The notes beneath the pieces were generated by a model. It ran no database searches. It was given only the letters and a program-made list of their open reading frames with translations, and had not been told where the DNA came from. Below, in pieces: positions 6,998-11,237 of a DNA stretch of 64,000 bases. Positions within the stretch are counted from its first letter, which is position 1; each line of letters opens with the position of its first letter. The DNA comes from an uncultured Methanoregulaceae archaeon. GTDB taxonomy: Archaea; Halobacteriota; Methanomicrobia; Methanomicrobiales; Methanospirillaceae. The stretch covers positions 1,248,001-1,312,000 of the forward strand of contig CAVTTL010000001.1 of assembly GCA_963737635.1 (NCBI GenBank), written 5' to 3'. Both the position numbers and the translations under genes were made by a program.

Positions 6998-7118
6998 CCC
7001 CTTTTCCTTTCGATGGTGTTCCCTGTCAGACCGGTTGTTTTATAGTATCTCGTCCCGATAGAACGTGGCGTGCAAATGTCTATGTGGTCCCCGGAAGCAC
7101 TCTATTCAGGAGAGGGAC

Positions 7119-8045
7119 ATGTTTACCGTAACTGACGTTGCCACCGGACAGGGAACATTACAGTACCGTGAAGAAAACCTGACCGGGCTAAGATGTAGGA
7201 TCAGTCCCGAAAGGCTCAAGCGACGCATCGATCAGCCTCTTTCCCTTTCCGGAGAATCTGCCGGCTGTCCGTTCTGCCCGGAAAATGTCTTTTCCGTTAC
7301 CCCGACCTTTCCGGATGGATCCCGCATTGTACGTGGGGAAAGTGTGACGTTTCCCAACATGTTCCCGTTTGCTGCATGGCACACAGTGACGGTGATCACG
7401 AGAGATCATATAGTGTCTTCCTTTACCCGGCAGCAAATTGCTGATGCTCTCCATGCACAGACCGAATCACTCCTTCGGTATAACGGGTATCCCAGCATCA
7501 ACTGGAATTACCTGCCTTCCGCAGGGGCAAGTATTATCCATCCCCATATGCAGGGAGTTGCCGATCCGCGGCCCTCATGGTTGGCGGAGCGGTACCTCGC
7601 AGCCAGTAAAGAGTTTTCTGGAGGGACCAAAAGACGGTACTGGGATGCCGTGCGGGAGCAGGAAAGGTCATCGGACCGGTATCTCTTTGGTGATGAGATT
7701 CTCTGGTCTGCCCACGCGGTACCACTCGGCGAACGCGAGGTGCGAGGGATCCTGCCGGTCAGCCGGCTGGATGAGCTGGAAAACTATATTGAACCTCTTG
7801 CAGAAGGAATTCTTGAAATACTTGCACTCTACCAGAAACTGGGAACATATGCATTCAATATGGCCATCTTCTTTAGCAGGGAAAAAACAGACGATTTCTC
7901 TGCATTCTGCTCTCTGATCTCCCGGATCAACCCAAACCCCCTGTCAACGAGCGATTCGGCATTCATGGAACGTCTCCATAACGAACCTGTGATCCTGACC
8001 CTGCCCGAAGATCTCGGGCGGTACTACCGGAATGAAGGCCGGTGA
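7119..8045 (+). CDS. galT: Galactose-1-phosphate uridylyltransferase-like (HIT/GalT) protein
   Basis: CPFCP zinc motif, FPNMFPF, NYLPSAGASIIHPHMQ (HxHxQ); ATG after GGAGAGGG. Confidence 0.8.
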   Translation: MFTVTDVATGQGTLQYREENLTGLRCRISPERLKRRIDQPLSLSGESAGCPFCPENVFSVTPTFPDGSRIVRGESVTFPNMFPFAAWHTVTVITRDHIVSSFTRQQIADALHAQTESLLRYNGYPSINWNYLPSAGASIIHPHMQGVADPRPSWLAERYLAASKEFSGGTKRRYWDAVREQERSSDRYLFGDEILWSAHAVPLGEREVRGILPVSRLDELENYIEPLAEGILEILALYQKLGTYAFNMAIFFSREKTDDFSAFCSLISRINPNPLSTSDSAFMERLHNEPVILTLPEDLGRYYRNEGR

Positions 8046-8099: not shown

Positions 8100-8942
8100 T
8101 TACTCGAATTTTGCAACGAGTTTGGTCTTGCGGACGAGCGTGCCATCCTTCTTGTGGGGCTGGCGCAGGATGCTGTCGCCTGCTTTCTCAAGCTCGCGGG
8201 CCTCGTCGCAGAGGACTGCTGCGGTTCTCATCATTTCGTGAGCGCTTGCAACGATTGGGATGTATTTCTCCCATTCCTTGGTCATGAAGCAGCCCTTGAC
8301 GTTCTGGCCTGCAACAGCAATGGCAATCTCGTGGGCAGCGCGTGCCTTTGCCAGCGCGAAGGGGTTGGTGAACTCGCCGTCGACCGCCTTATCGGTGGTC
8401 ATGATGATCTTCGGGAGCTCGATTTCAGTGCCCTTTTTGCCGGCTTTGACTTGGTCGATGACCTTGTCGAGAGCGATTTGGAGTTTGCGGAATGCACCGG
8501 TGATTGCCAGAACTTTGACGAGATTACCGTTGTAGTCGGCCATCTCGATGGGGTCGAGGAATTCGCGGCGTGCACCGATCATGGAGTCGGCCTTCATGAT
8601 GATATAGCCGAACTTGGTGTCAGCCTTGACGCCTTCCCATTCCTTCTTCGTGGTTACATCATCAGTGATGATGACCGTCGGGATACCTGCTGCAGCGAGC
8701 TGTTCGCGGGCGCCGGTCGGGCCGGGGAGAACACCGTTGGGGGAGACTACAATACAGAAGTCCGGTTTGTATGCCTTCAGGTTGGAAACGACACGGTCAA
8801 CATCTGCCGGCTCGAGTTTTGTACCACTGGTCGCCATGAATGTCTGCATGTCTTCACGGTCTGCTCTCTCGTCAAGAAGCAGCTCTGCCATTACACCACT
8901 TGCAATATTGCCTAACTTGGCAACTCCTACTTTAACAACCAT
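8100..8942 (-). CDS. mtd: F420-dependent methylene-H4MPT dehydrogenase
   Basis: [47 protein letters not shown]. Confidence 0.97.
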
Positions 8943-9171: not shown

Positions 9172-9585
9172 ATGGATAGTATGAAAGATGGTCTTCTCAC
9201 CGACAGGCAGATGGAGGTACTTCGGTACCGGAAACAGGGAATGACCCAGCAGCAGATCGCAGACATCATCAGCACGTCCAAGGCGAATGTCTGTACGATT
9301 GAAAAATCTGCGATGGAAAATATCCGGCGGGCAAAAGAGACGCTTGAATTTTTGTATACCCTTGATGCTACACATCTTTGCACCATTCCTTCAGGAACAG
9401 ACCTGTTCGAAGTGCCGGGTATGATCTTTGCCGAAGCTGAAAAAGCCAAGATCAAGGTAAAATATGATACGATATCCCTTATTAACCGGCTCCGGGAAGC
9501 GCGACCCCAAGCGTACAAGGCCCGGTGCATCTGTGAAGATGTGCAGATCTATATCACAGATGAAGGGGAGATCTATTTCGGATAA
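9172..9585 (+). CDS. tfx: Tfx-family DNA-binding protein
   Basis: LTDRQMEVLRYRKQGMTQQQIADIISTSKANVCTIEKSAMENIRRAKETL, an HTH typical of Tfx. Confidence 0.85.
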   Translation: MDSMKDGLLTDRQMEVLRYRKQGMTQQQIADIISTSKANVCTIEKSAMENIRRAKETLEFLYTLDATHLCTIPSGTDLFEVPGMIFAEAEKAKIKVKYDTISLINRLREARPQAYKARCICEDVQIYITDEGEIYFG

Positions 9586-9664
9586 ATGCGCTATGCCGTT
9601 CGTTATTCCTGAACGACCCGGATGTTAAGGGACCGTAAGGAATACCGTGCCACGGAACACTGGC

Positions 9665-9675
9665 ATAAATATATA
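9665..9675 (+). promoter_or_regulatory. Putative TATA box for the long leader/ribosomal protein operon
   Basis: ATAAATATATA ~25-30 nt upstream of the first strand of the structured region. Confidence 0.55.
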
Positions 9676-9696
9676 TGCCCTTTTAATCAATAGTTA

Positions 9697-10203
9697 CGGA
9701 AGCCGATATGGGAGTATCCCTGCCGTACCTGTCTGTGAGACACATATGGCACCGGCGGAAATCATGCCCGAGACGACACCGGGAATGGTTTTGCCGTGGG
9801 TATTTCCCGATTGGTGACCTCCTCGTCTACGAGGAGGGTCCCGAGAAGGAGTTGTGATCCGTCACAACGGGCTGACAGAGTTGGATCTGACCGTGACGTA
9901 CAGGTGGACGTTTCCGTAACGGCCTGTTCCCCTGACTGATATCAGGGGATGCGTCAATGTCAGGGTCTTCTTTCGCGAGAAAAACACCGGGAACTAACTG
10001 GAGTGCAGAATATCTTCATTCCCGCTCTCCGGGTTCCTGGCCGACCGGTTCACAGGCAAGGCATACCACCGCGATATGCGGATGGCATATGCGTCGTGCC
10101 GGTGACACCGGATCGCGTGTTGGCTTACCGGACAGGCAAGTGATAACACTTCAGTCTCGGATTCATCTCTCTAGTTCGTGTCAAGTATAACCCAAAACAC
10201 GAA
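9697..10203 (+). ncRNA. Candidate large structured RNA / 5' leader of the rpl3 operon
   Basis: About 15 nested helices by eye, with G-U pairs and UNCG/GNRA loops; closing helix 9697-9710 with 10116-10130; no credible ORF. Confidence 0.65.
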
Positions 10204-10223
10204 TGCAAAGGAATGATTGACAC

Positions 10224-11237
10224 ATGCCAAAAATAAACAGACCACGCCGAGGCTCACTGGCGTTCAGCCCACGAAAACGTGCACAGAGCCCCATACCCAA
10301 ATACAAGTCTTGGCCACAGCGCACCGGCGCACCCGCGCTGCTGGGCTTCGCCGGCTACAAAGTGGGGATGACGCATGTCCTTATGGTCGATGACCACAAG
10401 GACAGCCCGACAGAGGGCAAAGAGATCATGGTACCGGTTACGATCATTGAAATCCCAACCATGAAAGTTGCTGCCATACGGGCATATTCGCAGGATACCT
10501 ACGGCCGACACGCATTGACTGAGATCTGGGCAGAGCCGTTGGATGAACAGCTTTCCCGCCGTGTAACCATGCCTAAGAATTACGACAGTACAGCTGCGAA
10601 GAAGAAATGTGCAGATGCGCTGGCAGCAGGGCTGGTGGCCGAGATCTACGCGCTTGCATACACCCAACCGGCAACTATGAGCGGTGTACCAAAGAAGGTG
10701 CCCGATCTCATGGAGATCAAGATATCTGGTGGGGATGTTGCAAAGCAGTACGAGTATGCTCTTGGGCTGCTCGGAAACGAAGCCCGGCTCAACAATGTGA
10801 TAGAGATCGGCGCGTATGCTGATATCACGGCCATCACTATAGGTAAGGGCACACAGGGTCCGGTCAAGCGCTGGGGAGTCATGCTCCGCAAGAGAAAGCA
10901 CTCGGTTGGCGGAAAAGAGCGTCATGTCGGTACTCTTGGACCCTGGAATCCCCACCACGTCCGCTGGGAAGTTCCCCAGAGCGGCCAGATGGGTTACCAG
11001 CAGCGCACCGAGTTCAACAAGCGCATTTTAAAGATCGGTGAAAACGGTGCGGAGATCACGCCGGCAGGAGGCTTCCTTAACTACGGCGTTGTCAGGAACG
11101 CGTATGTCGTTATCAAGGGGTCCATCCCCGGTCCGGCAAAGCGTCTTATCCGTATACGCCCGGCAATTCGTCAGGGAGAACATGTTATTCGCGCGCCCGC
11201 GATCCAGTTTGTGAGCGTCCAGAGCAAACAGGGGTGA
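10224..11237 (+). CDS. rpl3: 50S ribosomal protein uL3
   Basis: [47 protein letters not shown]. Confidence 0.98.

Follow-up and report, generated by a model that had tools for sequence, protein, structure and literature searches.

A conserved, folded and probable leader of the rpl3 operon in Methanoregula that contains the RF03135 motif and a probable relic of a methyltransferase gene

Introduction

The leader of the Escherichia coli S10 operon is a structured RNA that precedes genes for L3 and L4 and through which L4 exerts autogenous control. Very few cis-regulatory RNAs are known to us from archaea and none, to our knowledge, has been tested there for the L3-L4 operon; nor do we know of attenuation of the NusA type in archaeal transcription. 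Here, we describe a sequence directly upstream of rpl3 in an uncultured Methanoregulaceae archaeon (GenBank assembly GCA_963737635.1), lying in a 64,000-nucleotide (nt) stretch of contig CAVTTL010000001.1 (positions 1,248,001 to 1,312,000 of the forward strand; hereafter the window, numbered from its first letter). We consider it probable that positions 9698–10223 constitute a ~527-nt non-coding 5′ leader of the rpl3-rpl4-rpl23-rpl2 messenger RNA (mRNA), taking its anatomy, its origin as a gene relic and its role in cis together. This leader would share with that of the S10 operon a position before genes for L3 and L4 and a similar feedback logic, at more than twice the length.

In archaea, Rfam family RF03135, the L4-Archaeoglobi ribosomal protein (r-protein) leader candidate, has been placed upstream of rplC-rplD-rplW-rplB, with L4 proposed as its ligand by analogy (Eckert & Weinberg, 2020; PMC7247131, Table 1). 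For Methanolobus psychrophilus, PMC5499594 reports that most r-protein operons carry large 5′ untranslated regions (UTRs), that cleavage stabilizes the transcripts and enhances their translation, and proposes post-transcriptional control; as described there, these long leaders resemble the one considered here but average 154 nt and act via cleavage, and the sections of that source concerned with them mention neither a conserved multi-helix fold nor an origin as a gene relic. A protein family also enters the comparison, namely the COG2106 SPOUT methyltransferases (PF02598, Methyltrn_RNA_3; MT1, PDB 1k3r), whose catalytic domain is described as interrupted by an OB-fold domain (PMC1829167) and whose genes have been reported within r-protein operons of diverse archaea (PMC2584109). 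Although the central 77 nt of our leader are already known as an Rfam family, a literature search (with the supplements of PMC7247131 outside its reach) found no description of the 527-nt fold, of the wide distribution of the motif, of its position within coding sequence or of a gene-relic origin.

Results

A complete RF03135 motif lies upstream of rpl3

The gap between the Tfx gene (9172–9585) and rpl3 (10224–11237; PF00297, E 1e-86) measures 638 nt, and the genes for uL3, uL4, uL23 and uL2 follow it directly, as in the published context of RF03135. A first-pass annotation, made from the letters of the window alone, had given the same gap length and had proposed a multibranched RNA of roughly 500 nt at 9697–10203, without a match to any known family, as either an undescribed autogenous leader targeted by uL3 or uL4 or an independent large non-coding RNA. 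When the whole window was scanned against Rfam at the gathering threshold, transfer RNA (tRNA) and RF03135 were returned and no other families. The RF03135 match (9887–9963, + strand) scores 48.4 bits (gathering score 34.5), spans model positions 1–85 of 85 and ends 260 nt before the rpl3 start. A match to an established Rfam family was among the outcomes that the first-pass annotation had itself named as refuting its proposal, and for the central 77 nt this outcome was obtained. The central part of the element is therefore not undescribed, and the supposed lack of a family match was wrong for 9887–9963; the novelty claimed for the leader survives for the surrounding ~450 nt, which are conserved and covary. 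Whereas the published motif is an 85-nt borderline candidate from Archaeoglobi, the complete model here occupies the centre of a ~527-nt conserved fold. The bacterial leader families in Rfam gave no match to the gap, and a permissive scan of the gap for other families yielded sn2429, mir-663 and HgcC, all of them sub-threshold chance matches.

The window's genome contains one RF03135 match. Scores exceeded the cut-off in 61 of the 121 genomes of the order (Methanomicrobiales) and, for the phylum as a whole, in 82 of the 151 genomes searched, and the element stands immediately upstream of rpl3 in 58 of 59 loci examined. A search with typed-motif blocks left most blocks of the genus unmatched in other families, the patterns being too strict (diverged versions were later found by eye).

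Conservation and covariation support a multidomain fold

The gap was matched at the DNA level in 21 of the 24 other genomes of the genus, and 74 further Methanoregula leaders (517–581 nt from the 5′ anchor to the start codon) were aligned with that of the window to give the set of 75 used below. In a separate alignment of 20 species nothing aligns from the tfx stop to 9662 (the 78 nt upstream of the promoter block are unalignable), and conservation sets in with a TATA-like block, invariant in 20/20 (a TATA box in the gap had also been reported in the first-pass annotation), and extends to the rpl3 start. Of the 529 window positions compared among the 75 leaders, 111 are invariant and conservation reaches 90% or more at 183. 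This conservation is blocky: invariant positions make up 25 of 37 in 9841–9877 and 29 of 95 in the Rfam core, and 9986–10108 has none. As a yardstick we took the third codon positions of the adjoining rpl3, only 17 of 337 of which show no variation across 72 of these genomes; with 21% of leader positions invariant against 5% of these, the blocks are under selection at the single-base level, and the neutral decay expected of a pseudogene is not seen.

On either strand, 9697–10203 folded better than every one of 100 dinucleotide shuffles (z −4.89 for +, −4.34 for −). An RNAalifold consensus of the 75 leaders comprises 132 pairs, for which 92.1% of alignment cells are paired against 38–42% when partners are slid by 1–3 columns; the covariation score is 0.212 (0.05–0.07 in the slid controls) and cells with double changes number 594 (at most 220 in the controls). 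The fold reported in the first-pass annotation is thus real, with a helix map that is right only in part. The best-supported elements are the closing helix P1 of the 5′ domain (97.9% paired, both sides changed in 3 of 11 pairs), hairpins A, B and C (double changes in 6/6 pairs of A and 5/10 of B), the five helices of the RF03135 junction (consensus helices 11–15, in which the pairs of the Rfam model are compensated) and small hairpins in the variable part (helices 19, 20 and 22 carry double changes). Hairpin D and the terminal hairpin at 10177–10201 are nearly invariant within the genus, and the stem of hairpin D changes on both sides in other genera (read by eye from the alignment, uncounted). 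G-U is the commonest pair at 12 of the 132 consensus pairs (tallied from the per-pair table), favouring an RNA from the + strand, as had been argued from the repeated G-U pairs of the gap. The leader is thus conserved and folded, with a 5′ three-way domain, two hairpins and a central three-way junction that is RF03135 (Table 1).

Comparison with relatives sorts the helices that had been listed in the first-pass annotation, all of which can form in the window's own sequence. The local hairpins hold. Those at 9721–9751 (outer stem), 9816–9840 and 9928–9949 and the helix 9894–900/9950–56 show changes on both sides in the 20- and 75-species sets; those at 9851–9868 (99.8% of cells paired) and 10175–10203 are near-invariant in the genus. 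Three of the nested long-range helices fail in the 20 species, with 54% (9752–56/10098–102), 39% (9773–77/10093–97) and 45% (9987–94/10033–40, where the alignment is unreliable) of cells paired, and a fourth, 9872–77/9958–63, gives C-A in 4/20 and is displaced by the P1 helix of the Rfam model (9883–91/9959–67), whose last pair is CG in 43, UG in 16 and UA in 15 of the 75 leaders.

The proposed 14-bp closing helix fared less clearly. It is 88.6% paired and, at −23.5 kcal/mol, the strongest 5′-end duplex of the window, but it is broken by C-A in 3/20 and its 5′ strand covaries with 9805–9815 instead. The 5′ end (9698–9719) in fact has two mutually exclusive partners, 9805–9815 (P1) and 10108–10130 (the 3′ block), and it is the P1 alternative that covaries for the 5′ strand (AU:46/GC:18 and GC:66/AU:4 at two pairs). 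In a duplex search over 15 representatives, the best 5′-end duplex fell at the place of P1, 60–107 nt before the core, in six (two of them gene-bearing, see below) and elsewhere in four (the window, L058, L052 and L033); no anchor was called in L176 and L179 and an evidently wrong one in L175, L046 and L044. The two partners could reflect a switch or plain ambiguity. The 3′ block can also pair with 9869–9877.

The consensus also contains three candidate long-range helices (LR1–LR3). The partner blocks of LR1 are visible in other families, where a single position looks compensated by eye, too weak to claim; five pairs of LR2 vary on one side with pairing kept (GC to GU in 8, UG to UA in 11).

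The leader resembles the middle of a methyltransferase gene

The space taken up by the leader is occupied by a gene in other archaea. In L032 (same order, other genus) an open reading frame (ORF) of 285 amino acids (aa) fills the tfx-rpl3 space, and in L062 (another class) one of 316 aa ends 4 nt before rpl3; both match PF02598 (E ~1e-56), the family to which the leading gene of the rpl3 operon belongs in other archaea. Using blastn, 9812–9891 of the window aligns with nt 305–387 of the L032 gene at 85% identity (E 2e-20, with gaps of 1, 1, 4 and 1 nt), and weaker pieces follow at 9903–9912 and 9954–9980, so that ~170 nt are homologous to the OB-fold insert region. A tblastn match runs through frame 2 and then frame 1, changing frame at ~9880. 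Alignment with distant relatives likewise shows the sequence around the motif to be coding there. By nucleotide homology, 9812–9985 is shown to correspond to the middle of a PF02598 (COG2106 SPOUT methyltransferase) gene, with which the leader also shares the tfx-rpl3 slot and a 5′ UTR anchor.

This relationship extends across the phylum. When the RF03135 and PF02598 searches of 151 genomes were cross-tabulated, 73 of 90 RF03135 hits lay within a PF02598 match, that is, in coding sequence and not in a leader; the other 17 came from genomes without PF02598 (15 in the window's order and two outside it, both of these below the Rfam cut-off), and seven genomes had the gene but no RF03135 hit. Haloferax volcanii, included as a control genome, matched RF03135 as well as PF02598. 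Within the order the gene occurs in only 5/121 genomes and 3/30 genera, and in 0/22 in the window's family. The window's genome (90% complete) gave no PF02598 match at E<=10 in six frames with stops read through, and the leader, despite its homology and synteny with intact genes, holds no SPOUT-domain remnant, hidden Markov model profile match or reading frame; what remains is conserved as RNA. The 75 leaders have no conserved reading frame in common: their longest + strand ORFs (median length 75 aa) begin at scattered points, the ancestral frame is closed by a stop before codon 34 in at least 61 of 72 leaders, and the hairpin-loop indels have lengths not divisible by three. The relic is conserved base by base, not codon by codon, and the leader is therefore what remains of an mRNA in which an embedded RNA structure has outlasted the reading frame.

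That the region still codes for protein, whether by recoding or in the form of a small OB-fold-like peptide, is barely credible in our view: short ORFs do exist (such as 9708–9857 and 9796–9939), but their positions and frames are not conserved in the 75 leaders, and neither the loop indels nor the six-frame profile search favours translation. Functionless decay, with conservation and apparent structure as mere leftovers, would explain the frameshifts and stops of the relic, and a more recently decayed copy (in G178 and G206) retains C-terminal coding remnants by eye. We nevertheless find this very improbable, in view of the excess of invariant positions over neighbouring third codon positions, the conservation of would-be synonymous sites while sequence between blocks is scrambled, the covariation that preserves helices and the survival of the core although the frame was lost at least three separate times (see below).

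Other stages of decay may be represented among relatives. L180 (G178:C1:1542000-1545200) and L181 (G206:C80:3300-6400), from another family of the phylum and outside the order, combine the motif with the C-terminal remnants just mentioned; tblastn at E<=0.01 found no PF02598 protein match upstream of their rpl3, and by eye this gene seems to have decayed there more recently and independently. Two species of one genus, L182 (G175:C8:218400-221200) and G166:C1:2228222-2228975, carry the PF02598 gene upstream of rpl3 in two overlapping pieces in different frames, with a TGA inside one piece, which could be a shared frameshift, early decay or recoding. Unusually long versions also occur: the tfx-rpl3 gap of genus g7 (L025/L034, G030) is 1595 nt, exceeding that of the other relatives with the gene by ~500 nt, and the open frame containing PF02598 reaches 483 aa in g7 and 414 aa in G040 against the usual 280–320 aa.

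Elements of the RNA architecture occur within intact genes

The gene-bearing relatives L032, L033, L034 and L035 have the same TATA box and 5′ anchor, which in them make up the methyltransferase gene's short 5′ UTR. In unconstrained minimum free energy (MFE) folds of 5′ UTR plus gene, the anchor pairs with mRNA nt 310–331 in two of three such relatives, a partner just upstream of hairpin C and thus at the place of P1; the partners of LR1 also pair in the MFE fold of L032, and by eye a hairpin lies within the coding sequence at the place of hairpin C. Across 29 intact genes, synonymous codon entropy is 0.53–0.79 around the motif against 0.85–1.1 elsewhere (descriptive values only), and amino-acid conservation is not raised there. 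Compensating changes preserve eight of the 27 motif pairs among coding-lineage sequences, counted over 22 of the 29 loci (L064, L068, L069, L071, L073, L074 and L082, with figures equal to a neighbour's, were left out).

A uL3 tree with 39 rows requires four state changes to account for the presence of the gene, and two losses (within families f2 and f4) fall on well-supported branches; since the backbone is not resolved (18 of the 36 inner branches are open), we claim only that there were at least three separate losses. Most Methanomicrobiales are shown to lack the reading frame yet to keep the RNA structure embedded in it, along with the promoter and the 5′-end pairing. That the element persists where the methyltransferase has repeatedly been lost shows its role to be independent of that protein. 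Whether the helix between 5′ UTR and mid-coding sequence, together with the RF03135 junction, represents an old regulatory RNA architecture in the first gene of the rpl3 operon, which outlived the frame at least three times in Methanomicrobiales to become a ~530-nt non-coding leader, is a question on which we find the case evenly poised.

Transcripts of relatives extend over the leader

None of the 24 RNA runs listed holds this organism (each contained fewer than 1/10 of the sampled words); contigs of relatives in four metatranscriptomes cover 9710–9983. Two such contigs bridge the leader into rpl3 (10107–10387 and 10114–10249), although, being from relatives, they show neither ends nor strand and may include DNA carry-over. 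Contigs of relatives also skip or swap the variable region (joints 9987–10103 and 9990–10107) and give no depth over 9532–9707, from which we draw no conclusion. Contigs spanning leader and rpl3 are compatible with a single transcript, for which we infer a start near 9698 and read-through into rpl3.

These data bear on the possibility of an independent, stable, trans-acting non-coding RNA that arises from the promoter at 9663–9676, or is released from the leader, and merely sits beside rpl3. The element does have the size and structure (z −4.89) of large non-coding RNAs and its promoter lies 527 nt away from rpl3; it is, however, single-copy and tied to rpl3 in all but one of the loci examined, contigs run into rpl3, the same element forms part of an mRNA coding region in other lineages, and the 20- and 75-sequence Methanoregula alignments contain no conserved TATA-like block between element and rpl3 or near rpl3. 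We regard such an RNA as quite improbable, and of the two alternatives raised by the first-pass annotation, a leader acting in cis with uL4 as candidate ligand remains the best reading.

Endonucleolytic processing offers a different account of the same transcript, in which the long structured 5′ part would be cut off to leave a shorter, more stable and better-translated rpl3 mRNA. The cleaved r-protein leaders of M. psychrophilus provide a precedent, and in run X3 depth is ~60–159 over 9752–9971 against 31–66 over rpl3, contig depth being a poor measure. Processing alone would leave the base-level conservation of a 95-nt three-way junction across the phylum unexplained, and we think it unlikely as the account of this leader; it can coexist with feedback, and is to be taken seriously as an alternative or complement.

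Features of the leader and its surroundings

Table 1. Coordinates of the elements in and around the rpl3 leader (window numbering; pairs of strands separated by a slash).
Feature	Position	Strand	Basis
TATA-like promoter block	9663–9676	+	no variation in 20/20 genus sequences
5′ domain: P1 (9702–9713/9805–9815) around hairpin A (9722–27/9745–50) and hairpin B (9753–62/9787–96)	9702–9815	+	consensus fold
Nucleotide relic, central (OB-fold insert) coding part of lost PF02598 gene	9812–9985	+	blastn against L032 gene
Hairpin C	9819–9836	+	6/7 pairs double-changed, 75 leaders
Candidate long-range helix LR1	9841–9849/10152–10160	+	RNAalifold consensus; five pairs invariant 75/75, no within-genus covariation
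Hairpin D, 7 bp, 4-nt loop	9851–9868	+	5/7 pairs invariant in 75 leaders; 99.8% of cells paired
Candidate long-range helix LR2	9869–9877/10118–10126	+	94.5% paired, no double changes
Core three-way junction, RF03135 with extended closing stem	9878–9972	+	Rfam hit 9887–9963; helices 11–15 covary in 75 leaders
Candidate long-range helix LR3	9974–9978/10113–10117	+	consensus fold; 3/5 pairs invariant, no double changes; sequence self-complementary
Variable region, lineage-specific hairpins	9986–10108	+	0/123 positions invariant
Conserved 3′ block, 3′ strands of LR3, LR2 and LR1	10109–10170	+	11/62 positions invariant, 75 leaders
Terminal hairpin just ahead of ribosome-binding site	10177–10201	+	helix 25, 94.2% paired, 2/6 pairs invariant
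Shine-Dalgarno-like block and rpl3 start codon	10205–10226	+	kept in 75 leaders

Within the leader, a Shine-Dalgarno-like purine run followed by the 5′ arm of hairpin D (9846–9861) may be partly complementary to the 3′ end of archaeal 16S ribosomal RNA (rRNA). Upstream of tfx, and divergent from it, lies a gene for methylene-tetrahydromethanopterin dehydrogenase (8100–8942, − strand; PF01993, E 1e-104), and 7065–8045 (+ strand) holds a 326-aa ORF that has no Pfam match at E<=0.001 and is overlapped by several shorter frames. The tRNA gene of the Rfam scan occupies 1755–1826 on the − strand (RF00005, 57.5 bits).

Discussion

The conserved fold, the relic within it and the near-constant linkage to rpl3 together suggest a leader that works in cis on the r-protein operon. 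How it would do so can be sketched by analogy. The core would serve as a putative binding site for an r-protein encoded downstream in the operon, for which uL4 is the candidate on the analogy of bacterial L4 control and the guess of the Rfam authors alone. Binding would stabilize the closed long-range fold and bring the core beside the block that lies before the ribosome-binding site (the 3′ block carrying the LR strands sits 60–110 nt before the start codon), such that, once free protein exceeds rRNA, expression of the operon would be lowered through a translation block, cleavage or termination. Feedback by an r-protein through this leader in particular is a proposal that we make tentatively, as a distinct possibility falling somewhat short of an even chance.

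Several observations weigh against the leader as we describe it, or against parts of it. RF03135 itself was graded a borderline candidate by its discoverers (PMC7247131). Of five genomes checked that lack the Rfam hit under strict filters, four still have none at E<=1, and in these four genomes of the order the anchor, core blocks and 3′ block are recognizable by eye only. Among the 75 leaders LR1, LR2 and LR3 show no double changes at all, their support being conservation and energy, and they therefore stay candidates; with two competing partners for the 5′ end, the fold as a whole is not settled. The − strand folds well too, making the evidence for strand indirect, and the bridging contigs, the synonymous-entropy dip and the backbone of the uL3 tree carry the limits given above. 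Mimicry of rRNA by the leader is unsupported, a short-word blastn comparison with the organism's own rRNA operon region having returned nothing beyond chance (best E 1.1, at the level of sequence only).

These findings supply independent comparative support for a motif ranked as borderline, and they correct its location, which in most lineages is inside coding sequence; annotation pipelines and users of Rfam should accordingly expect it to overlap COG2106. They also offer a clear case in which a coding region became a leader, with an overlapping RNA structure still under selection once the protein was dispensable, and define a construct (the core at 9878–9972 or the full leader) suited to binding and probing experiments on uL4 and the other proteins of the operon. 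Should the regulatory architecture indeed be older than the loss of the frame, the Rfam "leader" would in most archaea lie inside a gene, and the losses of that gene would amount to a natural experiment in which the element works independently of the protein once encoded around it. For the organisms themselves, the loss of COG2106 in most Methanomicrobiales predicts loss of the rRNA methylation made by this enzyme, for which 23S m3U has been proposed (PMC2584109).

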